A stretch of 64,000 bases of DNA from Escherichia phage JK1. The notes under the pieces are model-generated. The model did no database searches. It saw nothing but the letters and a program-made list of their open reading frames with translations, and was not told the origin of the DNA. The translations under genes were made by a program, and so were the position numbers. The first letter of the stretch is position 1. Each line of letters begins with the position of its first letter. This document shows, in pieces, positions 5,162-48,625 of this stretch. The DNA is taken from the sequence record MZ436830.1; one strand, written 5' to 3'.

Positions 5162-6727
5162 ATGACTATCAAAACTAAAGCTGAACTTTTGAACAAATGG
5201 AAGCCATTACTGGAAGGTGAAGGTTTACCGGAAATTGCTAATAGCAAACAAGCGATTATCGCTAAAATCTTTGAAAACCAGGAAAAAGATTTCCAGACAG
5301 CTCCGGAATATAAAGACGAAAAAATTGCTCAGGCATTCGGTTCTTTCTTAACAGAAGCTGAAATTGGTGGTGACCACGGTTACAATGCTACCAACATCGC
5401 TGCAGGTCAGACTTCTGGCGCAGTAACCCAGATTGGCCCGGCTGTTATGGGTATGGTACGTCGTGCTATTCCTAACCTGATTGCTTTCGATATTTGCGGT
5501 GTTCAGCCGATGAACAGCCCGACTGGTCAGGTATTCGCACTGCGCGCAGTATATGGTAAAGACCCAATCGCTTCCGGCGCTAAAGAAGCATTCCACCCAA
5601 TGTATGGTCCAGATGCAATGTTCTCTGGTCAGGGTGCTGCTAAGAAATTCCCAGCTCTGGCTGCTAGTACTGAAACTGTTGTAGGTGATATCTATACTCA
5701 CTTCTTCCAGGAAACCGGTACTGTATATCTGCAAGCTTCAGCTGTTGTGACAATTGATTCTAGTGCAAATGATGCAGCTAAATTAGATGCTGAAATTAAG
5801 AAACAAATGGAAGCAGGTGTACTGGTAGAAATCGCTGAAGGTATGGCTACTTCTATCGCTGAACTTCAGGAAGGTTTTAACGGTTCTACCGATAACCCAT
5901 GGAATGAAATGGGCTTCCGTATCGATAAACAAGTTATCGAAGCTAAATCTCGTCAGCTGAAAGCTGCTTACTCTATTGAATTAGCACAAGACCTTCGCGC
6001 TGTTCACGGTATGGATGCTGATGCTGAACTGTCCGGTATTCTGGCTACCGAAATTATGCTGGAAATCAACCGCGAAGTTGTTGATTGGATTAACTACTCC
6101 GCTCAGGCTGGTAAATCTGGTATGACCCTGACTCCGGGTTCTAAAGCTGGTGTATTTGACTTCCAGGACCCAATCGATATTCGTGGTGCTCGCTGGGCGG
6201 GTGAATCCTTTAAAGCTCTGTTGTTCCAGATTGACAAAGAAGCAGTTGAAATTGCTCGTCAGACCGGTCGTGGTGAAGGTAACTTCATTATCGCTTCCCG
6301 TAACGTAGTTAACGTTCTGGCTTCAGTTGATACTGGCATTTCTTATGCTGCACAAGGTCTGGCTACCGGCTTTAACACTGATACTACCAAGTCAGTATTT
6401 GCTGGTGTTCTGGGTGGTAAATACCGCGTATATATCGACCAGTATGCTAAACAGGATTATTTCACTGTAGGTTATAAAGGTCCGAACGAAATGGATGCTG
6501 GTATTTACTATGCTCCATATGTAGCTCTGACTCCGCTGCGTGGTTCCGATCCGAAGAACTTCCAACCGGTAATGGGGTTCAAAACTCGTTACGGTATCGG
6601 TATCAACCCATTTGCAGAATCCGCTGCTCAGGCTCCGGCTTCTCGCATCCAGAGCGGTATGCCTTCTATTCTGAATAGCCTTGGTAAAAACGCTTACTTC
6701 CGCCGTGTATATGTTAAAGGTATCTAA
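5162..6727 (+). CDS. 23: Major capsid protein gp23
   Basis: 521 aa ORF, sequence recognisable as T4 gp23 (MTIKTKAELLNKWKPLLEGEG...); followed by GGGACC-TTCG-GGTCCC terminator. Confidence 0.97.
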   Translation: MTIKTKAELLNKWKPLLEGEGLPEIANSKQAIIAKIFENQEKDFQTAPEYKDEKIAQAFGSFLTEAEIGGDHGYNATNIAAGQTSGAVTQIGPAVMGMVRRAIPNLIAFDICGVQPMNSPTGQVFALRAVYGKDPIASGAKEAFHPMYGPDAMFSGQGAAKKFPALAASTETVVGDIYTHFFQETGTVYLQASAVVTIDSSANDAAKLDAEIKKQMEAGVLVEIAEGMATSIAELQEGFNGSTDNPWNEMGFRIDKQVIEAKSRQLKAAYSIELAQDLRAVHGMDADAELSGILATEIMLEINREVVDWINYSAQAGKSGMTLTPGSKAGVFDFQDPIDIRGARWAGESFKALLFQIDKEAVEIARQTGRGEGNFIIASRNVVNVLASVDTGISYAAQGLATGFNTDTTKSVFAGVLGGKYRVYIDQYAKQDYFTVGYKGPNEMDAGIYYAPYVALTPLRGSDPKNFQPVMGFKTRYGIGINPFAESAAQAPASRIQSGMPSILNSLGKNAYFRRVYVKGI

Positions 6728-6742
6728 TCTTTGACGATTTAA

Positions 6743-6765
6743 GGGACCTTCGGGTCCCTTTAGTT
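6743..6765 (+). terminator. Rho-independent terminator after gene 23
   Basis: GGGACC-TTCG-GGTCCC hairpin followed by a T-rich tract. Confidence 0.7.
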
Positions 6766-6775
6766 GTTTTTATGG

Positions 6776-6783
6776 TATAAATA
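6776..6783 (+). promoter_or_regulatory. Late promoter TATAAATA (gene 24)
   Basis: Exact motif after the gene 23 terminator, 28 nt upstream of ATG 6811. Confidence 0.6.
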
Positions 6784-6810
6784 AATCATATAAACCAAAA
6801 GGAAAGCGCA

Positions 6811-8094
6811 ATGGCTAAAATCAACGAACTTCTGCGCGAATCAACCACAACGAATAGCAACTCAATCGGTCGCCCAAATCTCGTTGCTTTGACTCGCGCT
6901 ACCACTAAATTAATATATTCTGACATTGTAGCAACGCAAAGAACTAATCAACCTGTTGCTGCTTTTTATGGTATCAAATACCTTAACCCAGACAACGAAT
7001 TTACATTTAAAACTGGTGCTACTTACGCTGGCGAAGCTGGATATGTAGACCGAGAACAAATCACAGAATTAACAGAAGAGTCTAAATTAACTCTCAATAA
7101 AGGCGATTTATTCAAATATAATAATATCGTTTATAAAGTATTAGAAGATACTCCATTTGCTGATATTGAAGAAAGCGACTTAGAGTTAGCTCTTCAGATT
7201 GCAATTGTTCTTTTAAAGGTTCGTCTATTTTCTGATGCTGCAGTAACAAGCAAATTTGAAAGCTCTGATAGTGAAATTGCGGATGCTAGATTCCAGATTA
7301 ATAAATGGCAAACCGCAGTTAAATCTCGTAAACTTAAAACTGGCATCACAGTTGAATTAGCACAAGATTTAGAAGCAAACGGATTCGATGCTCCTAATTT
7401 CTTGGAAGATTTGCTTGCAACTGAAATGGCGGATGAAATCAATAAAGATATTTTGCAGTCTTTGATTACAGTGTCAAAACGCTATAAAGTTACAGGAATT
7501 ACTGATACTGGATTCATTGATTTGAGTTATGCATCTGCACCTGAAGCCGGTCGTTCATTATACCGAATGGTATGCGAAATGGTTTCACATATCCAGAAAG
7601 AATCAACTTATACAGCAACGTTCTGTGTTGCTTCAGCTCGTGCCGCTGCGATTCTTGCTGCATCAGGTTGGTTAAAACATAAACCAGAAGATGACAAATA
7701 TCTTTCACAAAATGCCTACGGGTTCTTAGCTAATGGTTTACCGCTTTATTGCGATACCAACAGCCCATTAGATTATGTAATCGTTGGCGTAGTAGAAAAT
7801 ATTGGTGAAAAAGAAATTGTTGGATCAATTTTCTATGCTCCGTATACAGAAGGTCTTGACTTAGATGACCCTGAACATGTAGGTGCATTTAAAGTTGTAG
7901 TTGATCCAGAAAGTTTGCAGCCATCTATCGGTTTATTAGTTAGATATGCTTTATCTGCAAATCCTTACACTGTAGCAAAAGATGAAAAAGAAGCAAGAAT
8001 AATTGATGGTGGAGACATGGATAAAATGGCGGGTCGTTCAGATTTGTCTGTTTTATTAGGTGTTAAGCTACCAAAAATTATCATTGATGAATAA
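6811..8094 (+). CDS. 24: Capsid vertex protein gp24
   Basis: 427 aa ORF, gp23 paralog by position and length; late promoter at 6776-6783; bidirectional terminator downstream. Confidence 0.93.
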   Translation: MAKINELLRESTTTNSNSIGRPNLVALTRATTKLIYSDIVATQRTNQPVAAFYGIKYLNPDNEFTFKTGATYAGEAGYVDREQITELTEESKLTLNKGDLFKYNNIVYKVLEDTPFADIEESDLELALQIAIVLLKVRLFSDAAVTSKFESSDSEIADARFQINKWQTAVKSRKLKTGITVELAQDLEANGFDAPNFLEDLLATEMADEINKDILQSLITVSKRYKVTGITDTGFIDLSYASAPEAGRSLYRMVCEMVSHIQKESTYTATFCVASARAAAILAASGWLKHKPEDDKYLSQNAYGFLANGLPLYCDTNSPLDYVIVGVVENIGEKEIVGSIFYAPYTEGLDLDDPEHVGAFKVVVDPESLQPSIGLLVRYALSANPYTVAKDEKEARIIDGGDMDKMAGRSDLSVLLGVKLPKIIIDE

Positions 8095-8100
8095 AACAAA

Positions 8101-8122
8101 GGGACCTTTCGGTCCCTTTTTA
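8101..8122. terminator. Bidirectional terminator between gene 24 and rnlB
   Basis: GGGACC-TTTC-GGTCCC hairpin flanked by A-run upstream and T-run downstream; convergent genes. Confidence 0.7.
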
Positions 8123-8123
8123 T

Positions 8124-9128: not shown

Positions 9129-9137
9129 AATTAATCC

Positions 9138-9702: not shown

Positions 9703-9707
9703 TATGA

Positions 9708-11126: not shown

Positions 11127-11135
11127 AAGTTATCC

Positions 11136-11816
11136 TTATTTTAATGTTACGAAAGAAGAATTACGTGTTTCACGAATTAGAACTGATCCGTCGCGATTAA
11201 TGTAATAAATTAAGCTAAATAAAGTTTGGTGCGCCGACGCGTGTTCAAAACTAGTTGGGTGAGATTTCCAATCCGGAGTTTCAGCAATCCACTGGTAAAT
11301 CCACCAAGGAACAGTGCAGAATCCTGGATTTTTTCCAATCAGCTGAAGATTCGGACTAAAGTTTTCCGGAAGAGTAAATACAGACGGCTTTTCAGATTCA
11401 ATAATCTCAGCTACAGCCTGCTCAAATTTTTCTTCAACAAAAGGAGTATCTTCAATCAAAACATCGGTATTTTCAGGAATTTTATCCGTTTCTACTACTT
11501 CAATTTTAATGTCAGATTTAACCGGAGAATCAATCAGAAGTGCTGCCTCTGGATTGACTTCTTCATCGTCATATTTTAATCCGTCTGCAGCATCAGCAGC
11601 ATCAATTAAGTCTTTAATAGATAACCCATCAGTCTCTGGCATAGGTTCACTAGCGAGCTTCTGGAGGGCTTCTTCAATATCATTAACGATATTATCAAAA
11701 GATTTATTCTTTTTGACCTTTATACCAAACTGTTCAGCATATTCAGCTAATTTAGCTTTAGCTTCTTTATTATCATCAAGAGCCTTCAGCTCTGCAATAT
11801 AATCTTTATCTATCAT
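11136..11816 (-). CDS. inh: Inh, inhibitor of prohead protease
   Basis: 226 aa ORF, same length as recalled T4 Inh; position between hoc and uvsW. Confidence 0.8.
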   Translation of the reverse strand: MIDKDYIAELKALDDNKEAKAKLAEYAEQFGIKVKKNKSFDNIVNDIEEALQKLASEPMPETDGLSIKDLIDAADAADGLKYDDEEVNPEAALLIDSPVKSDIKIEVVETDKIPENTDVLIEDTPFVEEKFEQAVAEIIESEKPSVFTLPENFSPNLQLIGKNPGFCTVPWWIYQWIAETPDWKSHPTSFEHASAHQTLFSLIYYINRDGSVLIRETRNSSFVTLK

Positions 11817-11829
11817 AATATTTCCTCAG

Positions 11830-11837
11830 TATAAATA
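11830..11837 (+). promoter_or_regulatory. Late promoter TATAAATA (uvsW)
   Basis: Exact motif 30 nt upstream of uvsW ATG in the inh/uvsW divergent region. Confidence 0.55.
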
Positions 11838-11866
11838 TAGATATATTTATTACATGGTATTTAGAC

Positions 11867-13378
11867 ATGACTGACATTAAAGTACATTTTTATGATTTTA
11901 GTCACGTGAGAATTGATTGTGAAGAAAGTACATTTCATGAACTCCGTGATTTCTTTAGCTTTGAAGCTGATGGGTATCGTTTTAATCCGAAGTACAAATA
12001 TGGCCACTGGGATGGACGAATCCGTCTTTTAGATTATAATCGCCTTCTTCCATTCGGTTTAGTCGGGCAAATTAAAAAGTTCTGCGATAACTTTGGCTAT
12101 AAAGCCTGGATTGACCCACAGATTAACGAAAAAGAAGAATTATCAAGAAAAGATTTTGATGAATGGCTTTCTAAATTAGAAATCTATTCAGGAAATAAAA
12201 GAATTGAACCGCATTGGTATCAAAAAGATGCAGTGTTCGAAGGATTAGTTAATCGTCGTAGAATTCTTAATCTTCCAACATCCGCAGGTAAATCTTTAAT
12301 TCAAGCTTTGCTTGCTCGGTATTATTTGGAAAATTATGAAGGCAAAATTCTTATCATTGTTCCAACAACTGCTCTGACAACTCAGATGGCTGATGACTTT
12401 GTTGACTATCGTTTATTCAGTCATGCAATGATAAAGAAAATCGGCGGTGGAGCATCAAAAGATGATAAATATAAAAATGATGCACCAGTCGTTGTTGGTA
12501 CATGGCAAACTGTAGTAAAACAACCGAAAGAATGGTTCTCACAGTTTGGAATGATGATGAATGATGAATGCCATCTTGCTACAGGAAAAAGTATTTCATC
12601 TATCATATCAGGTTTAAATAACTGTATGTTTAAATTTGGTTTGTCTGGTTCATTACGTGATGGCAAAGCTAATATCATGCAGTATGTTGGAATGTTTGGT
12701 GAAATATTTAAGCCAGTAACGACTTCTAAATTAATGGAAGATGGACAAGTAACTGAGTTAAAAATTAATAGTATTTTTCTTCGCTATCCAGATGAGTTCA
12801 CTACTAAATTAAAGGGAAAAACTTACCAAGAAGAAATAAAAATTATTACTGGACTCAGTAAAAGAAATAAATGGATCGCTAAATTAGCTATTAAGCTTGC
12901 GCAAAAAGATGAAAACGCTTTTGTCATGTTTAAACACGTATCGCACGGTAAAGCTATTTTCGATTTAATTAAAAATGAATACGATAAAGTTTATTACGTA
13001 TCAGGGGAAGTTGATACCGAAACCCGCAATATAATGAAAACCTTAGCTGAAAATGGTAAAGGAATAATTATAGTAGCTAGTTATGGTGTATTTTCTACTG
13101 GTATTTCAGTTAAAAATCTGCATCACGTTGTTTTAGCGCACGGTGTTAAATCAAAAATCATTGTATTACAAACAATCGGTCGTGTATTACGTAAGCATGG
13201 TTCTAAGACAATAGCAACCGTCTGGGACCTCATAGATGATTGTGGCGTTAAGCCAAAATCTGCTAATACGAAAAAGAAATATGTTCATTTGAACTATCTT
13301 TTAAAACACGGCATTGATCGTATTCAGCGCTATGCAGATGAAAAATTTAATTACGTAATGAAAACAGTTAATTTATAA
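11867..13378 (+). CDS. uvsW: UvsW DNA/RNA helicase (SF2)
   Basis: 503 aa ORF with helicase motifs (PTSAGKS Walker A, DECH box); late promoter at 11830-11837. Confidence 0.9.
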   Translation: MTDIKVHFYDFSHVRIDCEESTFHELRDFFSFEADGYRFNPKYKYGHWDGRIRLLDYNRLLPFGLVGQIKKFCDNFGYKAWIDPQINEKEELSRKDFDEWLSKLEIYSGNKRIEPHWYQKDAVFEGLVNRRRILNLPTSAGKSLIQALLARYYLENYEGKILIIVPTTALTTQMADDFVDYRLFSHAMIKKIGGGASKDDKYKNDAPVVVGTWQTVVKQPKEWFSQFGMMMNDECHLATGKSISSIISGLNNCMFKFGLSGSLRDGKANIMQYVGMFGEIFKPVTTSKLMEDGQVTELKINSIFLRYPDEFTTKLKGKTYQEEIKIITGLSKRNKWIAKLAIKLAQKDENAFVMFKHVSHGKAIFDLIKNEYDKVYYVSGEVDTETRNIMKTLAENGKGIIIVASYGVFSTGISVKNLHHVVLAHGVKSKIIVLQTIGRVLRKHGSKTIATVWDLIDDCGVKPKSANTKKKYVHLNYLLKHGIDRIQRYADEKFNYVMKTVNL

Positions 13379-22236: not shown

Positions 22237-22289
22237 CCTCATGTTATGTCAGTAAGACTACTATAACACAACACGAGGGACTTGTAAAC
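22237..22289 (-). repeat. 53-bp promoter/leader cassette, copy 1
   Basis: 51 of 53 positions identical to 37451-37503; spans -35 through the Shine-Dalgarno region. Confidence 0.85.
22260..22288 (-). promoter_or_regulatory. Early sigma70-type promoter (-35 TTTACA, 17 bp, -10 TATAGT)
   Basis: Minus strand GTTTACA-17-TATAGT followed by GAGGA and ATG 22228; inside the 53-bp repeat. Confidence 0.55.
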
Positions 22290-24346
22290 TACATCTTGAA
22301 CTTTTTAGACATTCCGTTGATGTTAACCAAAGAAGCCAAGATTTGAGAAACTTCGTTTTCCTCTTCTTTTGATTCTTCTACAAGGAATTGATTAAATCCA
22401 GCCATTGGACGAACTTCACCAGTTTCCATTAAATGGTCGCCATCATATACTGATTCTTCTAATTGTTCAGAAGGAGGAACGATTGTACCTTCTATTAGAT
22501 ACTTGTTATAAGCAGTTTCTTTCATAAAGTACGTGCTCACTTTATTAATCTTCAGTAAAATTCCACGCGGTAGAATAACTTCAGCTTCTGATGGAAATCC
22601 TGATAAATGACCTGGAACGATAACTTTGATTCGCTCAGCTCCTTTAATTACCATACCCACGCTAGTTTCAGCATCTTCATTAGCATATGTAGAATGACTA
22701 CCCATATGCATCAAATCTTCTGCATCAACGGAACCTTCTCCTTCACCAGAAAATACTGCGCCGGAATCATCTAGAGCCATATAGTTTTTACCATGCTCAC
22801 CGAAGATATTTGGTTTAAGCGATGTGGATACGAAGTTCTTGAAATAGAACATTTTATTTTCAATGTTATGACGCAAAGTTTTAAAGGTAACTTCTTGCCC
22901 ACGATAAAGAGTAGTTCCTGGAGGAAGAACAGAACCTTTAGCAAATGCAGAATCCAACGTCTCGATGTGTTTAATAGCTCGTTCCATATATTCTTCACGG
23001 GTAGAATCAGGTTTACCTAAAAGGAACGAGTTCATTTCAACATATGAATCTGCACAATAATCTTCAATTACATCAGATTCAGCTTGGGTTAATCCTTTTG
23101 GAGTTACTTCGGTGCTTGCGTATTCATATGCCTGAGCAGCAGATTCATTAATCAATTTATAAATGCCATTCATTACAAATTGAATAATAGCTGTCTTTTC
23201 ATCTGGCGTAGCTTTAGAACCTTTAACCAAATCATTGATAATTTTCTTAATAACATCAAAGCTATTAGAAATATTAATGTCAGCAAGATCGCTTAAAATT
23301 TTATCAGTTTTATAATCAAAGAATTCTTTATTCTTTAAATATTCTTGAGAACCTTGATATGTTATATCGCTCTGCAACTTGATGGATGGATCACGTAAAC
23401 GTGCATGGGCTAATGCAATATGATTTCGGAAACTTTCTAGTTCATAATCGTTAGATTTAAAACGAGAAGCACTCCTCATACCACCGATAGCTCCTTTGCT
23501 GAAGTTTGAACCAATCTGAATAACGCCAGAGTTCATTGGTCCTTCTGCTTTATATACCGGAACTTTAGATTCAAACTCTTGATATTTCTTAGCAGCGAAG
23601 CTATCACCCTGAAGTGAAGCATCAACAGTAGAATATTGAGCTTGTGCTGCTAATCGACGACTAATTTTAGTTTTCTGAATAACAGCTTGATCCGTGCGCT
23701 TATCATTTTCTAAAGCAATAGAAGCAGCGACAGCGACAGCTTTAGGAACAGCATTACCTGTTTTAACGTCTACATAAACATCACCAACCTTTGATTCAAC
23801 TTTTGTGAATAACTCAGTTGAAATAGGAGGTACACCTGGAATGTCTTCTAAATTGGCATTTTTACGGTAAACCATAATATATGCATATTTCTTATCATAG
23901 TCCCAGATTTCCTTTAAAAGAACATATCGACCTGCTCCTTTAGTACGTACTAAACGGTCAGCAATAACTTGCATTTGACGAGCTGCGCCATTTGTTTTAC
24001 TTTTTAGTACGCGGAATAGGCATGCGTCGATTTTATACTGTTTCATTGTTTGAAGAGCAGTATCAAAAACAGCATTAATGACGCCAATTGGATTTCCACC
24101 CAAGTTTCTAAGCTTGACTAACGATAATTTCTCGTTGACACCTATCATTACGATATGCATCATTTTGTCGCCTGGCTTAACGTTTTTATTCGTATCACCG
24201 CCAGAGGTGTATGTACAAAATCTAAATCCAGGAAGAACGCTTTCTTCACCGGCTTGAATAGCAAAAATTTGTGGTATTTTATGCTTAGGATTTAAGTTAA
24301 CAACCGGCGCCGAAGCGCCGTCAAATAATTCTGTAATAAGTTCCAT
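22289..24346 (-). CDS. Alt-family ADP-ribosyltransferase, paralog A
   Basis: 685 aa; N-terminus MELITELFD...; C-terminal R-S-EXE-like motifs (YRGQ, FVSTSL, SEAEVILPRG) and YDGDHLMETGEV tail. Confidence 0.85.
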   Translation of the reverse strand: MELITELFDGASAPVVNLNPKHKIPQIFAIQAGEESVLPGFRFCTYTSGGDTNKNVKPGDKMMHIVMIGVNEKLSLVKLRNLGGNPIGVINAVFDTALQTMKQYKIDACLFRVLKSKTNGAARQMQVIADRLVRTKGAGRYVLLKEIWDYDKKYAYIMVYRKNANLEDIPGVPPISTELFTKVESKVGDVYVDVKTGNAVPKAVAVAASIALENDKRTDQAVIQKTKISRRLAAQAQYSTVDASLQGDSFAAKKYQEFESKVPVYKAEGPMNSGVIQIGSNFSKGAIGGMRSASRFKSNDYELESFRNHIALAHARLRDPSIKLQSDITYQGSQEYLKNKEFFDYKTDKILSDLADINISNSFDVIKKIINDLVKGSKATPDEKTAIIQFVMNGIYKLINESAAQAYEYASTEVTPKGLTQAESDVIEDYCADSYVEMNSFLLGKPDSTREEYMERAIKHIETLDSAFAKGSVLPPGTTLYRGQEVTFKTLRHNIENKMFYFKNFVSTSLKPNIFGEHGKNYMALDDSGAVFSGEGEGSVDAEDLMHMGSHSTYANEDAETSVGMVIKGAERIKVIVPGHLSGFPSEAEVILPRGILLKINKVSTYFMKETAYNKYLIEGTIVPPSEQLEESVYDGDHLMETGEVRPMAGFNQFLVEESKEEENEVSQILASLVNINGMSKKFKM

Positions 24347-34659: not shown

Positions 34660-36074
<1,415 letters not shown>

Positions 36075-36308
36075 TTATTTTTTCTCAACCAATGATTGAA
36101 TATAATCATGCAGGTCTTTAGATGCTTTACCCCACTTATTTTGATATTCATTTTTGAGATTAGCGCGTGATTGAGCTAATAAAACATCATTAGTTGGAGG
36201 TAAAGATTCTAATCGCTGAATCTGGCGTCCATAAATCATTGCAGCCATCTCGGATTCATAAATCAATCCTTTAAGATGTTCAAATTGATGCCATGAAATC
36301 ATTTGCAT
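36075..36308 (-). CDS. Hypothetical protein (pseT.x cluster)
   Basis: 77 aa ORF. Confidence 0.5.
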   Translation of the reverse strand: MQMISWHQFEHLKGLIYESEMAAMIYGRQIQRLESLPPTNDVLLAQSRANLKNEYQNKWGKASKDLHDYIQSLVEKK

Positions 36309-36598
36309 TTATCCTCTTTTAACTCTTGACGATAATAACATATCATAGTTTTCTGGTCATGTACATATCGTTTTACATCATTAAGCCAAATACGAAATTC
36401 CTGGGAATCTTCAAATGGCATACCGACCCAAGCTTTACCATCAATAACTTTAACTTGCCAAGATAGTTTAGCTTCATCATATGACTTTATTTGTACAGGC
36501 CAATTAGGATGAACTGTTTCTTTCTTTACTTCTAGAGGCTTTGTCGAACAACCAACTAGAAGACCAATAGATAATATTACTGCTGATAGTTTAATCAT
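36299..36598 (-). CDS. Outer-membrane spanin candidate (lipoprotein)
   Basis: 99 aa; signal peptide with lipobox LLVGC; directly downstream of and overlapping the i-spanin-like ORF (4 nt); corresponds to T4 pseT.2 by recall. Confidence 0.65.
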   Translation of the reverse strand: MIKLSAVILSIGLLVGCSTKPLEVKKETVHPNWPVQIKSYDEAKLSWQVKVIDGKAWVGMPFEDSQEFRIWLNDVKRYVHDQKTMICYYRQELKEDKCK

Positions 36599-36948
36599 TT
36601 AGAAAGGTCCTGGATGTCTTCTGCGAACTTGTTGAAGGAGTTGTTGATTTGTTTTTCAACCAATCCTGGCTTATGAGCCACCACATCCGCCTTCTTTGCG
36701 TCTTTGCGCAGTTTTTCATTTTCACGCTCAATAGCAGCAATTGCCTCACGATTTTTATTATTCATCGCATCAATATAATTATACTGAATTCGCAAATTAT
36801 TTAATGCTAAGGCGTTTTCATTGGCCGTTTTTGTAATTTCAGTAACCGATGTTTCTAATCTTTCTACCTTATTTTTTAAAATAATAGATGTTCCGCCAAA
36901 TACTATTACAAGTAATAGCAAACCTGCTGTCGTATTACTTAATTGCAT
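36595..36948 (-). CDS. Inner-membrane spanin candidate
   Basis: 117 aa; N-terminal TM helix (GLLLLVIVFGGTSIIL) then coiled-coil region; corresponds to T4 pseT.3 by recall. Confidence 0.65.
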   Translation of the reverse strand: MQLSNTTAGLLLLVIVFGGTSIILKNKVERLETSVTEITKTANENALALNNLRIQYNYIDAMNNKNREAIAAIERENEKLRKDAKKADVVAHKPGLVEKQINNSFNKFAEDIQDLSK

Positions 36949-37445
36949 AAAGTTTTAATAACCTCTATAATATCGTCTTGAGAAAGACCGTTAATTAAAA
37001 TATGATGTTCCGCCGGAGATTTAGAAATTTTAAAGCATGCCGCAACATCTTCTGCCATATCCGATGCGCTACGATTTGGATTACTAATTCCAAGACGATG
37101 TTTTCCCGTTAAAGGATTAACGATGATATAGCATTTACAGCTATTGATATGAACATTAGGTTGAGTCTGATTAATGAACACTTCACAATCATACTTAGCG
37201 AGTTGATTTTCTAAAAAGACTTTCATCTCTTCAACCGCATCAGGAAGCATATCACGGGCTTGCTCAAGACGACGATTTCGATATTCTTTAATGGTCGTTT
37301 TCCGCTTGACTTGCTTAGCTAAATCTTTCTTAAGATCGGTGATATATCCAACTCGACGATTTCCTTTAAATACAGAAATCCCATCTGTAGTATCACCGTA
37401 TGCTTCAACGACCATTTCAGTAGTAATAAGCTGCAAATCCATCAT
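36939..37445 (-). CDS. alc: Alc, host transcription termination/unfoldase protein
   Basis: 168 aa ORF (MMDLQLITTEMVVEAYG...), length and position as T4 Alc; early promoter upstream. Confidence 0.85.
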   Translation of the reverse strand: MMDLQLITTEMVVEAYGDTTDGISVFKGNRRVGYITDLKKDLAKQVKRKTTIKEYRNRRLEQARDMLPDAVEEMKVFLENQLAKYDCEVFINQTQPNVHINSCKCYIIVNPLTGKHRLGISNPNRSASDMAEDVAACFKISKSPAEHHILINGLSQDDIIEVIKTLCN

Positions 37446-37450
37446 AAAGT

Positions 37451-37503
37451 CCTCATGCTATGTCAGTAAGATTACTATAACACAACACGAGGGACTTGTA
37501 AAC
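37451..37503 (-). repeat. 53-bp promoter/leader cassette, copy 2
   Basis: 51 of 53 positions identical to 22237-22289; lies between the rnlA stop and the alc start. Confidence 0.85.
37474..37502 (-). promoter_or_regulatory. Early sigma70-type promoter upstream of alc
   Basis: Minus strand GTTTACA-17-TATAGT, GAGGA, ATG 37445; second copy of the 53-bp repeat. Confidence 0.55.
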
Positions 37504-37506
37504 AGC

Positions 37507-39094
<1,588 letters not shown>

Positions 39095-39102
39095 AATAAA
39101 AT

Positions 39103-39116
39103 GGGCCTTGCGGCCC
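39103..39116 (-). terminator. Hairpin/terminator between nrdB and denA (minus strand)
   Basis: GGGCC-GCAA-GGCCC hairpin on the minus strand followed by a U-rich tract. Confidence 0.45.
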
Positions 39117-39121
39117 ACTCC

Positions 39122-40300
39122 TTAAAAGTATTTTTTAAAACTCATCATAACTTTATCATCAACGTCATTATCAATCTGTGCTACAAGATAAGATGACAGT
39201 TCTACTTCTTGCGGCGCGGATTGAACATTATCAGAATTAAGATATTCACGAATCCAAGGATATGGATGTTTAACCGGAGCATCGGTAATTGGGCATGGAA
39301 GACCACACTGTTTCATACGAGATACAGTTAAGTAATCAATAAAGCTCCACATGCTATTTGTATTTAATCCAGGAACATCGCCATCTTTAAATAAATGAAC
39401 TGCCCAATCTTTTTCTTGGCGGTTAACTTCCATGAAAATATCAACTGCTTCTTGTTCACACTCTTGAGCAATTTTAACCCATTCATCGCCATCAGTACCG
39501 GATTGAAGCTGACGAATAATATATTGAGTGCCTTTAAGGTGAAGCTGCTCATCACGTGCAATGAACTTCATAATCTTGGCATTACCTTCCATGATTTCCA
39601 TGTTCTTGTGGAAGTTAAAGGTACACGCGAAAGATACATAAAAACGAATAGCTTCTAAGGCATTAATAACGTACAAACAGAGGTAAAGAGATTTCATTAA
39701 AGCACGTTTAGCTTCGGCTTCTTGTTTAATAGCTCGGTTTAAACGAAAGTCGGCATCAGGAGATTCTTTAGCTAGTTCTACAAATTCTTTAGCGTTTTCC
39801 CAATAACGAGTTTTAGTCAGAACATCATCATAATAACGTCCAATGGATTCAGCACGTTTCATAATAGCTTCATCTAATACAATCTCATCAAATACCTTCG
39901 ACGGATCAGTATAAAGATTTCGCATGATATGTGTATATGAACGGCTGTGAATAGTTTCACTAAAAGTCCACGTAGCAACCCATGTATCAAGGCTCGGGTC
40001 TGAAATTAATGACATAAGTACAGCAGACGGCGCACGACCCTGAATGCTATCCAAAAGTGATTGATACTTCAGATTATTAGTAAAAATATTTTGCTGATAC
40101 TGAGGAAGCTTATTAAACTGTGCAGCATCCATCATTAAGTTTACTTCTTCAGGCCGCCAGAAAAATGATAATTGCTTTTCGGTTAAATCTTCAAAAACTT
40201 TATGACGTTGAATATCATAACGCGCAATACCAAGGCCTGAACCAAAAAACATAGGTTCTTTTAAAACATCAACTGGATTTGTATTAAAAACTGTGCTCAT
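39122..40300 (-). CDS. nrdB: Ribonucleotide reductase small subunit
   Basis: 392 aa uninterrupted ORF; di-iron ligands and tyrosyl radical context conserved; no intron. Confidence 0.93.
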   Translation of the reverse strand: MSTVFNTNPVDVLKEPMFFGSGLGIARYDIQRHKVFEDLTEKQLSFFWRPEEVNLMMDAAQFNKLPQYQQNIFTNNLKYQSLLDSIQGRAPSAVLMSLISDPSLDTWVATWTFSETIHSRSYTHIMRNLYTDPSKVFDEIVLDEAIMKRAESIGRYYDDVLTKTRYWENAKEFVELAKESPDADFRLNRAIKQEAEAKRALMKSLYLCLYVINALEAIRFYVSFACTFNFHKNMEIMEGNAKIMKFIARDEQLHLKGTQYIIRQLQSGTDGDEWVKIAQECEQEAVDIFMEVNRQEKDWAVHLFKDGDVPGLNTNSMWSFIDYLTVSRMKQCGLPCPITDAPVKHPYPWIREYLNSDNVQSAPQEVELSSYLVAQIDNDVDDKVMMSFKKYF

Positions 40301-40351
40301 AAATTTTCCACTTAGTTAATAGATAGTGACTCGTCCATGAGTCAAATTATA

Positions 40352-42616
40352 TCATAATTTACAGGATGAACAATCTTCAGCTTTTGGAGTTTCTATTTCA
40401 TAATCATCAGTACCAGAACCATCGCGGGTATTATGATAATAGAAATTTTTTCCGCCAAAATACCAAAAATACAAAAGGTCATCAATCATTATTGACATTG
40501 GAACCTTTCCTTTTGGAAAAATCTGCGGGTCATAATATGTATTCGCCGAAGCTGATTGACAAACCCATTTCAGCATAATAGCTACCTGCGTAAGATAAGG
40601 TTTATTACCTTTCTTAGCTAATTTCCATGTATAATCATAGAGGTCTATGTTATGCTCAATATTGGGCACGACTTGATTAAAGGAGCCCTCTTTTGATTCT
40701 TTAACAGAGACTGGTCCACGTGGAGGCTCGATACCGTTTGTACTGTTAGAAACTTGGGAAGATGACTCACATGGCATAAGTGCTGATAATGTGCTATTAC
40801 GGATGCCAAAGAGCTTAAGGTCTTCCCGCAGCGACGACCAGTCACAAACGTATTTTGGAGCTGCGATTTGGTCAATCTTTTTATTGTACCAGTCGATAGG
40901 TAATTCGCCTCGAGACCAACGAGTGTCTGAATAATATTCGCAAGGTCCTTTTTCTTTGGCGAGCTTAATGGATGCTTTAATGAGTCCATACTGTAATCTC
41001 TCAAATAGTTCATGTGTTAAATCGTTAGCATCTTCATAAGAAGCAAAGTTACTTGCCAGCCAAGCTGCATAGTTAGTAACACCTACACCAAGGTTTCGAC
41101 GCTTTTTAGCTTTTTCTGCTTCAGGAACTGGATATCCTTGGTAATCCAAAAGATTATCAAGAGCACGAACTTGAACTTCTGCCAATTCATTAATTTTATC
41201 TTGGTCTTGCCAATCGAAGTTATCCAGCACAAATGCAGATAACGTGCACAATCCAATTTCAGCATCGGGGCTATTCACATCATTTGTTGGAATAGCAATT
41301 TCACAGCACAAGTTACTCTGACGAATAGGTGCCTTTTCACGAATAAATGGAGTATAGTTATTCGTATTATCAATGAACTGTACATAAATCCTTGCTGTTC
41401 CTGAGCGTTCAGTCATGAGCAATTCAAATAGTTCACGGGCTTTAATACGCTTTTTACGAATATTAGGATCTTTTTCTGCTGCTTCGTATAATTCACGGAA
41501 ACGGTCTTGGTCTTTAAAATAAGAATAATAAAGCTCGCCACCCATTTCATGCGGACTGAACAAAGTAATGTAGTCGTTCTTTCCAAAACGTTCCATCATC
41601 AAATCATTCAGTTGAACACCATAATCCATATGACGAATGCGGTTTTCTTCTACGCCTTTGTTATTTTTCAAAACGAGAAGATTTTCAACTTCCAAATGCC
41701 AAATAGGATAATAAGCAGTAGCAGCGCCGCCACGAATTCCACCCTGTGAACATGATTTAACTGCAGTCTGAAAATGTTTCCAAAAAGGAATAACACCAGT
41801 ATGACGTACTTCACCCATGCCAATCTTAGAACCTTCGGCACGAATCATACCAACGTTAATACCAATTCCAGCACGTTTGGAGATATATTCAACAATTGAA
41901 GCGGAAGCCTTATTGATAGACTTTAATGAATCACCTGCCTCAATAACAACACATGAACTAAACTGTCGAGTCGGAGTACGACAACCAGCCATAATAGGAG
42001 TTGGTAATGAAATCTGTCGAGTAGATACTGCTTCATAAAAACGGATAACGTGTTTTAATCTATCAACAGGTTCATCTTGATGCAGTGCCATTCCAATAGT
42101 CATAAATGCAAACTGTGGAGTTTCATAAATTTGACCAGTGGTTTTATCTTTAACTAAATATTTTTCTTTTAATTGCATCGCCCCGGAATAAGTAAATTCC
42201 ATATCCCGCTCGTGCTTAATTTTTGATTCTAAAAATGTAATTTCTTCTGCTGAATATTTTGACAATAATTCAGGGTCATATTTACCTGCATTTACACAAT
42301 AAGAAATATGGTCAATAAATGAACGTGGTTCATACTGCCCATAAACATGCTTACGAAGAGCGAACATTAAACAACGTGCAGCTACATATTGGTAATCAGG
42401 CTCTTCAACCGAAATAGAATTCGCAGCAGCCTTAATGACAATAGTCTGAATATCATCAGTTGTCATTCCATCACGGAGATAAGATTTAATATTTTCATAT
42501 AATTCATAAGGATCTACTGATGTTCCCTCAGCTGCCCAAGATAAAACTTTAATAATTTTTTGTGGGTCAAAGCTCTGAGAAACACCACTACTTTTGATAA
42601 CATTAATTAATTGCAT
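40352..42616 (-). CDS. nrdA: Ribonucleotide reductase large subunit
   Basis: 754 aa ORF, length as T4 NrdA; class Ia RNR features. Confidence 0.93.
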   Translation of the reverse strand: MQLINVIKSSGVSQSFDPQKIIKVLSWAAEGTSVDPYELYENIKSYLRDGMTTDDIQTIVIKAAANSISVEEPDYQYVAARCLMFALRKHVYGQYEPRSFIDHISYCVNAGKYDPELLSKYSAEEITFLESKIKHERDMEFTYSGAMQLKEKYLVKDKTTGQIYETPQFAFMTIGMALHQDEPVDRLKHVIRFYEAVSTRQISLPTPIMAGCRTPTRQFSSCVVIEAGDSLKSINKASASIVEYISKRAGIGINVGMIRAEGSKIGMGEVRHTGVIPFWKHFQTAVKSCSQGGIRGGAATAYYPIWHLEVENLLVLKNNKGVEENRIRHMDYGVQLNDLMMERFGKNDYITLFSPHEMGGELYYSYFKDQDRFRELYEAAEKDPNIRKKRIKARELFELLMTERSGTARIYVQFIDNTNNYTPFIREKAPIRQSNLCCEIAIPTNDVNSPDAEIGLCTLSAFVLDNFDWQDQDKINELAEVQVRALDNLLDYQGYPVPEAEKAKKRRNLGVGVTNYAAWLASNFASYEDANDLTHELFERLQYGLIKASIKLAKEKGPCEYYSDTRWSRGELPIDWYNKKIDQIAAPKYVCDWSSLREDLKLFGIRNSTLSALMPCESSSQVSNSTNGIEPPRGPVSVKESKEGSFNQVVPNIEHNIDLYDYTWKLAKKGNKPYLTQVAIMLKWVCQSASANTYYDPQIFPKGKVPMSIMIDDLLYFWYFGGKNFYYHNTRDGSGTDDYEIETPKAEDCSSCKL

Positions 42617-42933
42617 AAGTCCTCAACTTGAAAATCGTCTTTAAACAATCGGTTAACTATATGAGCTATTATATCACCATGACACGGCTTTGGTTTACAT
42701 GTGCATCCTAGCCTCATTCCACGTAAAGGCTCTAAATGTGCTTTAGTTATTTCTCCGGATTTAATTCGACGTATAAAATCTTTTTTGAATAATTCAATGG
42801 CAGCCTCCCGGCTGCCAGCATCTTTACCGACGTAATTTCCCCAAAATGTACCACGGTGAATATTAACATCAAAGTCGGATTTGTATTTATTCACTACCCG
42901 GCATAGACGGCCCGGTTGGTAATAATTCTTCAT
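42607..42933 (-). CDS. Conserved hypothetical protein (Cys/His-rich C-terminus)
   Basis: 108 aa ORF; motif [14 protein letters not shown]; overlaps nrdA start by 10 nt. Confidence 0.55.
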
Positions 42934-43150
42934 ATTGTTTTTCCGTTAATACAGTAATATCATAGTAACAATCGGAAGAAGTTTTAACTGTGGAAATTTT
43001 ATTGTCAAAATACTCACGAGTCATTTTATGAGTATAGTATTTTTTACCATAAATGGTAATAGGCTGTTCTGGTCCTGGAACTTCTAACTCGCTTGGATTA
43101 GGAAGTGTAAAAAGAACGACACCAGAAGTATCTTTAAATCGTAAAATCAT
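42887..43150 (-). CDS. Hypothetical protein
   Basis: 87 aa ORF between td and nrdA. Confidence 0.5.
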
Positions 43151-44007
43151 ATTGCCATTTTCCCTTTAATTGCTGGATGCGATTCATAATTTTCAAGGAT
43201 AAAATCTTTCGGTTTCATGTATTCAGTTAACCAGTAAAGCTGTGTTTCGGTGTCACAATTTCCAAACTCTATAGGCCAATCAATTTTAAGTTCACATAGT
43301 TCTTTAGGCTCACGACGTAAAATTTCTTTACATTGCTCAGTATGATTCATATAGATGTGAGTATTACCACCAGAAAATATCAAATCTCCTGGGATAAGAT
43401 TACACATCTTAGCCACAATATGCGTCAAGGCAGCGTACGAGGCAATGTTGAATGGCAAGCCCAAGAAAACATCTACACTTCTTTGGTACCATTGTAAATC
43501 AAGATAACCATTACGCACATTAAACTGATAGAACATATGACAGGGCGGTAATGCCATTTGATTGATTTCAGCTGGATTCCATGCTGAAACGATTTGACGT
43601 CGATCAGTTGGTAATTTTTTAATACGATCAATAGTTTCAACTAATTGATCCACACCACCGAAATCACGCCATTGTTTACCGTATATAGGACCAAGTTCAC
43701 CACTATGATATCCTAGGTCTTTAGCCTGGTTTTCATAGTTATCGTCCCAAATAGTTTTACCTTGAATAAGACTACCATGAGTGCGAAGACGTAAATCATT
43801 AACATTGGTAGAACCGGAAATAAACCATAAAAGCTCAGCAATGCATGCATTCCAGGCGAGCTTCTTAGTTGTTACTGCAGGAAAACCTTTGGTTAAATCC
43901 CATCGTAATTTAGTACCGAACAAAGCAATTGTTCCTGTGCCCGTTCGGTCATCGGTTTCATAGCCATTTTCAAAAATGTCTTTAATTAAATCTTGGTATT
44001 GTTTCAT
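43147..44007 (-). CDS. td: Thymidylate synthase
   Basis: 286 aa uninterrupted ORF; active-site segment PPCH; ATG 44005-44007; no intron. Confidence 0.95.
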
Positions 44008-44051
44008 TTAGTACCTTATATAAATTATAATACATTTTATGAAGCTAATAA

Positions 44052-44399
44052 TTAATACGGTTTAGCATCAAATTTTCTCTCAATTTCAGGCGTGAAATAT
44101 AATTCTTTACCGCGTTTGGAAAAGCGACCAATAATATGATAATTATTCTCATCAAACGTAATATTACCAATATCCATAGCTTTCAACCAAATATCGATAT
44201 TTCTATCCAGCTTTATGTCAAAATTCCAATACGGAGAACTATTACCGAAAATACTGCAAGCGGATTCAGTGAAACAGCTACTATAAATCTTGTCTTTAGG
44301 AACTACTAATTGATAGACACCTTTAATAAACTGAGGACCCTGCCACTTTGGCTGTTTCTCGTCTTTTTCTAACAGAATAGGGTAATAATTAAAATTCAT
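44052..44399 (-). CDS. Hypothetical protein
   Basis: 115 aa ORF between frd and td. Confidence 0.55.
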   Translation of the reverse strand: MNFNYYPILLEKDEKQPKWQGPQFIKGVYQLVVPKDKIYSSCFTESACSIFGNSSPYWNFDIKLDRNIDIWLKAMDIGNITFDENNYHIIGRFSKRGKELYFTPEIERKFDAKPY

Positions 44400-44418
44400 A
44401 TTTCCGCCACGCGTTATT

Positions 44419-45245
<827 letters not shown>

Positions 45246-45256
45246 ATTATCTCCTA

Positions 45257-45589
45257 TTAAAAAGGATCAGGAACATATCCGCTAGCTTTAATCATTTTAA
45301 TTAACGTTAACATTCCTTTGTTAACTGCTCGTGAGATTTCATCAAAAACTTCATCACTAAAAAGTTCTAACACGCCCTTCTGAACTTTTAATTTACAGCC
45401 AACAATTTCTTCATCGCCTATAGTAAATTCATTACCACCAATTCCACCGAAAAACTTAATTACACCAGTTAACTGTCTTCCACGAGAATATGGGTCGTGT
45501 GATAAAGTAATATGAGTCACCCCGGGTACAGTTTTAAATTGGCAGCGAATATTTACTTGTGAAATTCCAGTTACATGAATGTCAGACAT
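45257..45589 (-). CDS. Hypothetical protein (frd.x cluster)
   Basis: 110 aa ORF. Confidence 0.55.
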   Translation of the reverse strand: MSDIHVTGISQVNIRCQFKTVPGVTHITLSHDPYSRGRQLTGVIKFFGGIGGNEFTIGDEEIVGCKLKVQKGVLELFSDEVFDEISRAVNKGMLTLIKMIKASGYVPDPF

Positions 45590-45599
45590 AATATTTTCC

Positions 45600-45842
45600 T
45601 CAAATAGACTTTTTCACAATTTTCCAATCAGCTTTAAACTGATCGACGTCAGAGTGATAAATCCAAAATCCTGCGCTTTCACCGTCTTCATAAAGCGGAC
45701 ACCCATCACATTCATCTTCCCATCCCATGCCACGTAAAAGGTGTTCAGCTTTTTCAACAAGTTCAGAATCTTTACCGATGATATTAAAATACCATTTACC
45801 TCTAACTTCCGAATCTTTGATGCTCTGACGTTGTAATCTCAT
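45600..45842 (-). CDS. Hypothetical protein (frd.x cluster)
   Basis: 80 aa ORF; ATG 45840-45842 preceded by GAGGAGAATAAA; early promoter upstream. Confidence 0.55.
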   Translation of the reverse strand: MRLQRQSIKDSEVRGKWYFNIIGKDSELVEKAEHLLRGMGWEDECDGCPLYEDGESAGFWIYHSDVDQFKADWKIVKKSI

Positions 45843-45868
45843 TTTATTCTCCTCAAGTTGATAAGGCT

Positions 45869-45897
45869 ATAGTATCATTACCATAGCCCGTTGTAAA
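45869..45897 (-). promoter_or_regulatory. Early-type promoter candidate with embedded inverted repeat
   Basis: Minus strand GTTTACA-17-TACTAT; inverted repeat GGCTAT/ATAGCC (45865-45870, 45883-45888). Confidence 0.45.
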
Positions 45898-45900
45898 CAA

Positions 45901-46161
45901 TTATTTTTGAATTTTATCGAGCCACTTACCAAGCTTAATCATTTCTTTAGTAGCCTTTTCCATACTTCTGAACTTGACCAATAGAGGATAGGTATCGACA
46001 CCCATAACTAAACTGGTTACAAGACTGTGTTCACCCACAAGCCATAACGAATACGTTTGAATATCGAGCCCGTAATTTCTGTCTTTATGGACCCGTACAC
46101 CCATCACTTCAAATTTCTCACTAGCTTTTTCTACCGCATCCAGGAAATCATCTTTAGTCAT
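45901..46161 (-). CDS. Hypothetical protein (frd.x cluster)
   Basis: ORF track start 46203 would overlap the upstream gene by 41 nt; internal ATG 46159-46161 gives 86 aa and a clean stop/start junction. Confidence 0.45.
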   Translation of the reverse strand: MTKDDFLDAVEKASEKFEVMGVRVHKDRNYGLDIQTYSLWLVGEHSLVTSLVMGVDTYPLLVKFRSMEKATKEMIKLGKWLDKIQK

Positions 46162-46162
46162 A

Positions 46163-46543
46163 TTAGGCCTTAAAAGTTTTTCGCAAAAGTTCAATGATTT
46201 CATCTACATTGTTTTCATCTACAATGCAGTGAATTTTTGTTACGCCAGAAACCTTGTCTTTGACTTCATTTTCTTCAGAAGTCGGTTCTTTATACTCACG
46301 AAAACAATGAAATTCATCTTCGCAAATTTCTAAAAGTCTATCTTTGAGGTAAAAATGCTTTCCATTTGCGCATTCAATGTGTTTTACTGCTTTATATCCA
46401 TTAGCGACGGAAACTTCTTTAACTTCAAACCATCCGCCATTATCTCGAATAGCTTTAACGATTGATGAATTAGAACGTGGGCTATAATTAATAAATGTAT
46501 CAATAAGTCTTGGAACAAGTTCATACTTTTTGCCAATATACAT
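46163..46543 (-). CDS. Hypothetical protein (frd.x cluster)
   Basis: 126 aa ORF. Confidence 0.55.
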   Translation of the reverse strand: MYIGKKYELVPRLIDTFINYSPRSNSSIVKAIRDNGGWFEVKEVSVANGYKAVKHIECANGKHFYLKDRLLEICEDEFHCFREYKEPTSEENEVKDKVSGVTKIHCIVDENNVDEIIELLRKTFKA

Positions 46544-46587
46544 TATGTTTTCCTCATTTTAACGGGGCTGTAATAGCCCCTTAATAA

Positions 46588-46818
46588 TTATTGTTCAATC
46601 AGTCCCATGTAAAATTCTGCGTCTTCAGAATCCATGCCGTCACAATACTCATTAGCCATAAAGCGGGTGAGGTCTTCAAGAGGACCTTCAATGACAATAG
46701 AAAAATTGCAATAATTGGGATCATCGTGAATACTTGTGATACTAAGCTCAGGATAACGATTACGAATAATTTCTTCAATATATTCAAAATCAACGATGTC
46801 AATATCAACTTTAGCCAT
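46588..46818 (-). CDS. Hypothetical small acidic protein
   Basis: ATG 46816-46818 (MAKVDIDIV...) has AGAGGA upstream; ORF track start 46839 lacks an SD; first gene after the early promoter downstream of gene 32. Confidence 0.5.
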
Positions 46819-46861
46819 ATTATTTTCCTCTTTAATCATCAGCAGTATTGCCGATAGTTGT

Positions 46862-46890
46862 ATAGTACCACAGTCCTTGTGGTATGTAAA
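46862..46890 (-). promoter_or_regulatory. Early-type promoter candidate downstream of gene 32 terminator
   Basis: Minus strand GTTTACA-17-TACTAT; spacer contains inverted repeat TACCACA-GTCCT-TGTGGTA. Confidence 0.45.
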
Positions 46891-46922
46891 CTGTTTTGTG
46901 AAAAAATTTTTGAAATAAAAAA

Positions 46923-46941
46923 GGGGACCCTAGAGGTCCCC
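46923..46941 (-). terminator. Gene 32 terminator (minus strand)
   Basis: GGGGACC-loop-GGTCCCC hairpin about 25 nt after the gene 32 stop, followed on the minus strand by TTTTTTATTTC. Confidence 0.7.
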
Positions 46942-46963
46942 AATTAATTAGTAATATAATCTA

Positions 46964-47872
46964 TTAAAGGTCATTCAAAAGGTCATCCAGGTCCGTGTCA
47001 TCAGCACTAGATGAACTACCAGAGCTTGAGCTCATAAAATCATCTTCAGTTTTTGTATTGAAGTCATCAACATTGAATGCATCCAAATCATCAGCAACTT
47101 TATCAGCTTTCTTAGCGGCAGTTGCTGCAGCACCACCCATAGCAGCAGTTCCCATAACTTGACTGAACTTAGTGCTCAGTTCTTCAAACGATTTGAATTT
47201 ATCTTTAGAAGTCATTTCAGAAAGGTCAACCATTTGTTCGAACAGTTCTTTCTGGAAAGATTCATCATCAATGTTTGGAATCGCAGATTGATTCAGGAAT
47301 TTAGATTCATCGTAGTTACTAAAACCAGAAACTTGTTTAACTTTCAGTACAAAGTTAGCACCTTCCCAAGGACAAGTTACATCAACCGGAGTTTCACCCA
47401 TTTCAACATCAACTGCAATCATTGCGTTGATTTTATCCCAGATTTTCTTACCGAAACGGTATTTAAATACTTTACCTTCATTTTCTGGAGCAGCTGGGTC
47501 TTTTACTACAAGAATGTTAGCCCAGTAAGAAGTTTTACGTTTAACAAGACTGTACTCTTTATTGTCAGTGTTGTACAGATCATTTTTACTAATGTATTGA
47601 CATACTGGGCAAGAATCGTAATCACCGTGGGTAGATGAACAATTTTCGATATACCATTTACCATTTTTCTTGAAACCGTGATTTACAAGAATTGCGAATG
47701 GTGCTTGTTCATCATTTTTAGACGGAAGAAAACGAATTACTGCTTGACCGTTACCCGCATTGTCGAGTTTCAGTTTCCACTCGCCTTTATCTTCAGAAGA
47801 AAAACCACCTTTATTTCCAGCCAGTTTAGCCATTTGTGCAGCGAGTTCAGCAGTAGATTTACGTTTAAACAT
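46964..47872 (-). CDS. 32: Single-stranded DNA-binding protein gp32
   Basis: 302 aa ORF; zinc-binding Cys/His cluster and acidic Ser/Asp-rich C-terminal tail; operator pseudoknot upstream and terminator downstream. Confidence 0.95.
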
Positions 47873-47906
47873 TTTTATTTCCTTTTTAATTTAATTAACA
47901 GTTGGT

Positions 47907-47939
47907 GCTATGACGATGTATGACCTCATAGCTGGTCAG
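47907..47939 (-). promoter_or_regulatory. Gene 32 mRNA leader pseudoknot (autoregulatory translational operator)
   Basis: Minus-strand RNA: stem 1 UGACC/GGUCA interleaved with stem 2 GCUAUGA/UCAUAGC (H-type), followed by an A/U-rich unstructured leader to the ATG at 47872. Confidence 0.6.
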
Positions 47940-47955
47940 TGAGATAATTATAATC

Positions 47956-47963
47956 TATTTATA
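47956..47963 (-). promoter_or_regulatory. Late promoter TATAAATA (gene 32, minus strand)
   Basis: Plus-strand TATTTATA upstream of the gene 32 leader pseudoknot. Confidence 0.55.
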
Positions 47964-47971
47964 ATAAGCAA

Positions 47972-48625
47972 TTAATACTTACAAGATTTCACAGTTTCAA
48001 TGAAAACATTTTTAGCTTTCTGTGAATCAATATTTAAAATTTTTCTATAAGCCTTTAACTTTATAGAATAATTATTCCAGACTAAATTATCAGTCTGTTC
48101 ATCATGTTTATCGATTATATTTAAAAACGAATCAAGCAAGATAAACGTCTCAAACGAAATTATATTCGATTGCAGAAGTTTAAAAATATAACTTGACTGA
48201 ACTTTTGGATTATACTCAAAGATTTCTTTAAAAGCAGAAACTTCAACTTTTTTACTAAAATAATAAATGTTGCGAATATCTTCTTCAAACTTAAATTTAA
48301 TTTGCTTTAAGCGTCCGATATATTCACGATAAAACACAAGTGCATCAGCGTCAGAGATGTCGCCAATCCAAGCATCTTGGTTAGCAACCAAATTACTTAT
48401 AAAGATTAAAGCAAGTTCCTTTAATTTATATTTTTCTGATAACTTCTGGAAAAAATACTTATCCCTTCGCTTTTGATAAGCGGCATCAGACACCCGCATG
48501 CACCAATTATACTTAATAACATCATACTTTCCATTCATATGCTGTTTTATCATTAAGTATAATTTATAAACTGATTTACCATCAATGTATCTTTCACCAC
48601 CAGCAGGCATGCGGAGTTTAATCAT
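47972..48625 (-). CDS. 59: gp59 helicase loader
   Basis: 217 aa ORF, length and position as T4 gp59. Confidence 0.88.
   Translation of the reverse strand: MIKLRMPAGGERYIDGKSVYKLYLMIKQHMNGKYDVIKYNWCMRVSDAAYQKRRDKYFFQKLSEKYKLKELALIFISNLVANQDAWIGDISDADALVFYREYIGRLKQIKFKFEEDIRNIYYFSKKVEVSAFKEIFEYNPKVQSSYIFKLLQSNIISFETFILLDSFLNIIDKHDEQTDNLVWNNYSIKLKAYRKILNIDSQKAKNVFIETVKSCKY

Follow-up and report, generated by a model that had tools for sequence, protein, structure and literature searches.

Bacteriophage T4 is the carrier of 15 homing endonuclease genes, and the question raised here is whether the positions at which T4 holds introns or endonuclease genes are occupied in Escherichia phage JK1 (sequence record MZ436830.1) and, where they are empty, whether the targets of the nucleases are still present. 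The analysis covered one 64-kb stretch of the JK1 genome (64,000 nucleotides, hereafter the window), which extends from tail-tube and head genes through gene 23 to the arn/motA region of a T4-like genome. Megablast searches of window positions 36000-48000 and 5001-30000 against a phage collection identified the phage as a Tequatrovirus, with ~97% identity to hundreds of Tequatrovirus genomes (including 303Ecol101PP, JK38, RB18, teqdroes, teqsoen and vB_EcoM-101117BS1), many of which matched as one collinear piece. Judged by its sequence, the window carries a T2-type empty allele at all six loci where T4 has an element in this stretch. These loci are very probably ordinary unoccupied homing sites of a T2-type Tequatrovirus, at which a presence/absence polymorphism is kept by homing and loss.

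The window was compared by blastn with positions 100001-168903 of the T4 reference (NC_000866). The two sequences share a collinear backbone (90-98% identity across the window), interrupted by a clean deletion-type break at each of six loci, where T4 holds 598-1021 extra bases. The breaks were as follows:

Window 6738/6799, T4 106521/107311: segD locus
Window 11853/11873, T4 112044/112680: segE locus
Window 39624/39625, T4 138457/139056: nrdB intron
Window 40300/40356, T4 139719/140420: nrdB.1/mobE
Window 43455/43460, T4 143543/144565: td intron
Window 47935/47971, T4 147918/148542: segG locus

An earlier note on this DNA had given positions for the T4 endonucleases and proposed that the junctions be compared with the T4 reference; these positions were correct, the NC_000866 annotation having all the elements at those places. 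In T4, the spacer between genes 23 and 24 holds segD, encoded on the opposite strand, and that between inh and uvsW holds segE (112057-112674). A defective I-TevIII gene is contained within the nrdB intron, nrdB.1 and mobE separate nrdB from nrdA, I-TevI is encoded within the td intron, and segG (147909-148541) separates genes 32 and 59. All of these are missing from the window, where the genes and gaps at the six loci are:

5162-6727, + strand: gene 23, encoding the major capsid protein, next upstream of the empty segD site (98% identity to its T4 counterpart)
6728-6810: gap between genes 23 and 24, 83 bp, empty segD site (790 bp including segD in T4; gap identical to T2)
6811-8094, + strand: gene 24, capsid vertex protein
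11136-11816, - strand: inh (hoc.1)
11817-11866: gap between inh and uvsW, 50 bp, empty segE site (gap identical to T2, one mismatch in the flanking inh)
11867-13378, + strand: uvsW
39122-40300, - strand: nrdB, uninterrupted, 392 amino acids
40301-40351: gap between nrdB and nrdA, 51 bp, empty nrdB.1/mobE site (91/91 bases identical to T2)
40352-42616, - strand: nrdA
43147-44007, - strand: td, uninterrupted, 286 amino acids
46964-47872, - strand: gene 32, the SegG target gene
47873-47971: gap between genes 32 and 59, 99 bp, empty segG site (gap identical to T2, one mismatch in the flanking gene 59)
47972-48625, - strand: gene 59

Both td and nrdB translate as single open reading frames (ORFs), and each runs colinear with the T4 exons as spliced, straight through the insertion site, which bears out the earlier reading of the two genes as uninterrupted; the ORF coordinates and the gap lengths of 83, 50, 51 and 99 bp given at that time agreed exactly with the ORF list. 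Gaps of 50-99 bp are too short to hold an ORF. The gap between genes 23 and 24 contains a hairpin with a T-run (GGGACCTTCGGGTCCC) and a late-promoter motif (TATAAATA), and the gap between genes 32 and 59 contains, on the - strand, the late-promoter motif TATAAATA and a sequence resembling the gene 32 operator/pseudoknot.

In crosses of T4 with T2 that show marker exclusion, the endonuclease-poor T2 is the classical recipient. The T2 genome (AP018813 / NC_054931) is collinear with the window through all six loci, with the same gene order, uninterrupted td (861 nucleotides) and nrdB (1179 nucleotides) and the same 83-, 50-, 51- and 99-bp gaps. When the four junctions were compared together with ~20-60 bp of flank on each side, 0-3 base differences were found per junction, and the gaps themselves were identical. 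An extra ORF of 115 amino acids between td and frd is also common to T2 and the window. The likeness has its limits: the window td allele is only ~79% identical to T2 td, the variable segment of nrdB is a third allele, distinct from that of T2, and gene 32 is, unlike that of T2, a mosaic of T2-type and T4-type single-nucleotide polymorphisms. T2 is an experimentally established recipient for SegG, SegF, SegB and MobE (PMC2330249, PMC2790892).

Remnants of nucleases were searched for by tblastn of 12 T4 homing endonuclease proteins and NrdB.1 against the 64-kb window, and only chance-level matches were obtained (best E = 0.02, inside alt). The queries comprised the GIY-YIG proteins SegA, SegD, SegE, SegF, SegG, I-TevI and I-TevII and the HNH proteins MobA, MobB, MobC, MobE and I-TevIII; SegB, SegC and MobD were not among them, the two families being represented by the others. 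With the HNH queries, tblastn gave no match to the window below E = 0.3. The ORFs of the window that are absent from T4 were scanned with Pfam and PHROGs, and only families of unknown function were matched, with no nuclease domain. The small ORFs of this kind, located in the pseT and td-frd-gene 32 hyperplastic regions, were:

44052-44399, - strand: small ORF absent from T4
35754-36074, - strand: small ORF absent from T4
45000-45245, - strand: small ORF absent from T4
45257-45589, - strand: small ORF absent from T4
45901-46203, - strand: small ORF absent from T4

They matched phrog_1928, phrog_2364, phrog_3183, phrog_3566 (DUF7247) and phrog_4423, the function of all of which is unknown. Hidden nucleases among the ORFs absent from T4 were therefore rejected as a candidate explanation, the matches being only to unknown-function families such as DUF7247. 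An Rfam scan of the window gave no match; because the gathering-threshold control (T4 control sequence 36000-50000) also missed the ORF-containing group I introns of T4 td and nrdB, the scan was uninformative on introns, and the absence of introns was therefore judged by colinearity with the spliced genes. The clean blastn breaks, the tblastn result and the T2-identical gaps confirm the earlier expectation that no endonuclease fragments would be found at the junctions.

The prevalence of each element was counted as the number of phage records covering at least 80% of the T4 element, with ~520-600 Tequatrovirus-level records as the denominator. The td intron was found in 197 records, the nrdB intron in 118, nrdB.1 with mobE in 20 (143 had partial, mobE-like matches), segD in 53, segE in 159 and segG in 142. 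Each T4 element is thus present in ~4-37% of the ~520-600 relatives, and every one of them is therefore a minority state. Absence of the T4 introns and endonucleases is the usual, majority state of T4 relatives, already known and no special feature of JK1: T-even phages mostly lack the T4 introns and free-standing endonucleases, and T2 and RB30 act as recipients with local marker exclusion, as was established from the 1970s to the 2000s (PMC2988022). T4 was already described as the outlier among its relatives in a 2010 review (PMC2988022).

Three target sites that have been mapped in the literature were located in the window:

40175-40179, - strand: equivalent of the MobE nick positions, nrdB nucleotides 122-126 (nicks mapped in T2 nrdB, PMC2790892)
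39605-39655, - strand: I-TevIII homing-site equivalent (cleavage positions from PMC1865063)
43448-43485, - strand: 38-bp I-TevI homing-site equivalent, spanning -27 to +11 (site definition from PMC2988022)

Around the MobE nick site, nucleotides 90-128 of nrdB are identical in the window and T2, with the nearest differences at nucleotides 129, 132 and 147. The T4 sequence in this region differs at ~17/71 positions, and T4 must be immune to its own MobE. The nrdB intron insertion site corresponds to the junction between window positions 39625 and 39624, and I-TevIII cleaves at -14/-16 relative to the insertion site (PMC1865063). When ~-45 to +36 around this point was compared with the T4 exon junction, just two differences were found, a T-to-C change at -5 and another at +17.

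Two further features of nrdB were observed. Nucleotides ~490-620 (window ~39680-39810), with the MobE nick site on one side and the intron insertion site on the other, are hypervariable with insertions and deletions, and T4, T2 and the window represent three alleles there; the window-type segment also occurs in phage Ozark, and the NrdB protein has 392 amino acids in the window against 388 in T4. At nucleotides ~110-140 (window 40160-40190) there is T4-specific divergence, adjoining the position of mobE in T4.

The td allele of the window is divergent and mosaic. Its nucleotide identity is ~79% to both T4 and T2 td, whereas those two share 96% identity; on either side, nrdA.2 and frd reach ~94-95% identity to T4, and nucleotides ~720-810 of td, near the 3' end, are essentially unrelated to T4. 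The td intron insertion site corresponds to the junction between window positions 43459 and 43458. I-TevI recognizes a 38-bp site that has a CNNNG motif at -27 to -23 and a primary binding region of 20 bp with the insertion site at its centre (PMC2988022), and the enzyme needs CNNNG 23-27 nucleotides upstream of that point (PMC2988022, PMC5009752). The site reads CAAAGAAGTGTAGATGTTTTCTTGGGC^TTGCCATTCAA in the window and CAACGCTCAGTAGATGTTTTCTTGGGT^CTACCGTTTAA in T4 (^, insertion site). The two are identical at 28/38 positions and the ten differences are all synonymous; 15/20 positions of the primary binding region are identical, and the motif is kept as CAAAG (CAACG in T4), with C-27 and G-23 retained. 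I-TevI generally tolerates substitutions (PMC2988022). Some CNNNG triplets are poor I-TevI substrates (PMC5009752), and because of this the cleavability of the window td is uncertain from sequence alone.

An excess of substitutions at the I-TevI site was considered as a signal of resistance and rejected: divergence from T4 is 26% at the site, against 23% over the whole td gene (17% over the first 700 nucleotides). Since the site is no more divergent than its gene, there is no sign of selection for escape at this position. The earlier note had taken the target sites to be intact and had suggested that the I-TevI and I-TevIII recognition sequences be sought in td and nrdB. In nrdB the sequence supports this, the MobE site being that of T2 and the I-TevIII site being near-intact; in td the CNNNG motif is kept, but the site as a whole is not the T4 sequence.

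The Seg targets were considered by region. For RB30 and RB52, two phages without segE, the SegE cleavage site is reported to lie in the spacer between inh and uvsW (PMC2330249), and the spacer of the window is identical to that of T2. Over its first ~120 nucleotides, uvsW shows 100% identity to T2 and 73% to T4. Within gene 32, the first 66 nucleotides (the 5' end, which adjoins the empty segG site) are T2-type, including a 3-nucleotide indel. The target of SegD was listed as unknown in the 2010 review (PMC2988022). As a separate observation, the 5' end of uvsW (window 11867-12050) shows T4-specific divergence right beside the position of segE in T4; together with the divergence beside mobE, this would fit endonuclease-linked immunity or co-conversion polymorphisms.

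Occupied counterparts of these alleles were found in natural relatives. Phage Pu-Krd-SF6 (PQ759886) has a window-type td allele that is interrupted by a 1016-nucleotide intron, 99.7% identical to that of T4, with an I-TevI ORF. In the PQ759886 sequence that was compared (td at 694-2570), the td exons are window-type at nucleotides 1-~300 and from nucleotide ~554 to the end, with the same flanking ORFs as in the window, and a T4-type tract extends from td nucleotide ~300 to 4 nucleotides past the insertion site. Co-conversion during I-TevI homing is biased to exon I (PMC2988022), and the tract in Pu-Krd-SF6 matches this bias, which is expected because I-TevI stays bound on the exon II side. The arrangement suggests that homing into the window-type td allele has taken place in nature, and it would be a neat, textbook-style example of an exon-I-biased co-conversion tract. 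In Ozark, the window-type nrdB variable segment is accompanied by a 1.09-kb intron encoding a full-length HNH protein of 269 amino acids. Insertions in the same 12 kb occur in several relatives at 96-97% identity, and those of AV121 and Ozark are annotated as homing endonucleases. From these insertions and the Pu-Krd-SF6 and Ozark alleles, it follows that the loci are polymorphic within the lineage.

If the six loci are ordinary unoccupied homing sites, JK1 would be a recipient in mixed infections, as the earlier note had proposed. When JK1 and a carrier (T4, for example) infect the same cell, the donor nucleases would cut or nick the JK1 DNA within td, nrdB and gene 32 and in the spacer between inh and uvsW. 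Repair of the break from the donor template would then bring the nuclease gene into JK1, along with donor sequence on its flanks (co-conversion, or marker exclusion). We infer such cleavage and homing for JK1 itself from the T2-like arrangement and junctions and from the state of the MobE and I-TevIII sites, on which the proposal appears reasonable; the part of it that assumed a literally intact td site did not stand. Several points weigh against JK1 being an ordinary recipient throughout. The I-TevI site departs from T4 at 10/38 positions, and 5 of these changes fall within the 20-bp primary binding region; its cleavage motif is CAAAG instead of CAACG, certain CNNNG triplets being poor substrates (PMC5009752). 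With exons ~79% identical to those of td alleles that carry the intron, homology-dependent repair would also be less efficient. Ordinary recombination, and not nuclease-initiated homing, might in principle have produced the Pu-Krd-SF6 mosaic, and the SegG, SegE and SegD targets were assessed by gene-level location and by T2-type spacers and 5' ends, not by exact recognition sequences.

The td differences also bear on a second explanation, that the loci are empty through cleavage-resistant targets, notably the divergent td, and that the phage is not a recipient at td. It would account for the changes in the primary binding region and for the difference at 4/5 of the bases just 3' of the cleavage motif; CAAAG in place of CAACG would matter if this were one of the CNNNG motifs that are not cut well, and, as all the changes are synonymous, an escape route was available. 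This explanation is nevertheless considered improbable: the divergence of the site is not above that of the gene as a whole, I-TevI is tolerant of substitutions and C-27 and G-23 are retained, the window-type td allele is intron-occupied in Pu-Krd-SF6 with a homing-like tract, and the MobE and I-TevIII sites of nrdB are essentially unchanged with respect to the T2 and T4 exon sequences. Presence and absence do flip within the lineage, since relatives at least 96% identical (AV121, Ozark) carry homing endonuclease insertions, and loss is included in the model for the life cycle of homing endonucleases. A third explanation is that the lineage once carried the elements and that precise deletion, or recombination with empty alleles, then removed them. 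However, none of the six sites yielded a remnant, the junctions match T2 base for base, and independent deletions would rarely recreate identical junctions, so that secondary loss is judged highly improbable; replacement by recombination with an empty allele would look just like a lineage that was never invaded. Ordinary unoccupied homing sites of T2 type accordingly remain the preferred explanation for all six loci.

Other differences from T4 and T2 were observed elsewhere in the window. Nucleotides ~480-600 of gene 23 (window 5640-5760) are strongly divergent in T2 (58-63% identity to T4 and to the window), and here the window is nearer to T4 (85-88%) than to T2. Two full-length Alt-like ADP-ribosyltransferase paralogues of 685 and 698 amino acids are encoded in tandem at 22289-24346 and 24350-26446 (- strand); the pair is also present in T2, whereas T4 keeps only the alt.-1 and alt.-2 remnants of the second copy. 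The tail-fibre tip (window 55965-60719, + strand) is T2-type rather than T4-type: gp37 has 1312 amino acids with a C-terminus that is unalignable to T4, and it is followed by a Gp38 adhesin of 261 amino acids (Pfam GP38, Gp38_N), which replaces the T4-type assembly chaperone.

The absence of the elements is of little importance beyond annotation, for which no intron or split gene is needed at td or nrdB of this genome. The divergent td allele and its naturally invaded counterpart in Pu-Krd-SF6 are a small added point. It is rather unlikely that the divergent allele is partly resistant to I-TevI or has too little flanking homology for efficient repair; if it were, spread of the td intron would be slowed in this sub-lineage, and the presence or absence of the intron in Tequatrovirus td would reflect allele-specific susceptibility, not chance exposure. 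In mixed infections or engineered crosses of JK1 with T4-type phages, donor sequence would be expected to overwrite JK1 markers close to td, nrdB, gene 32 and uvsW.

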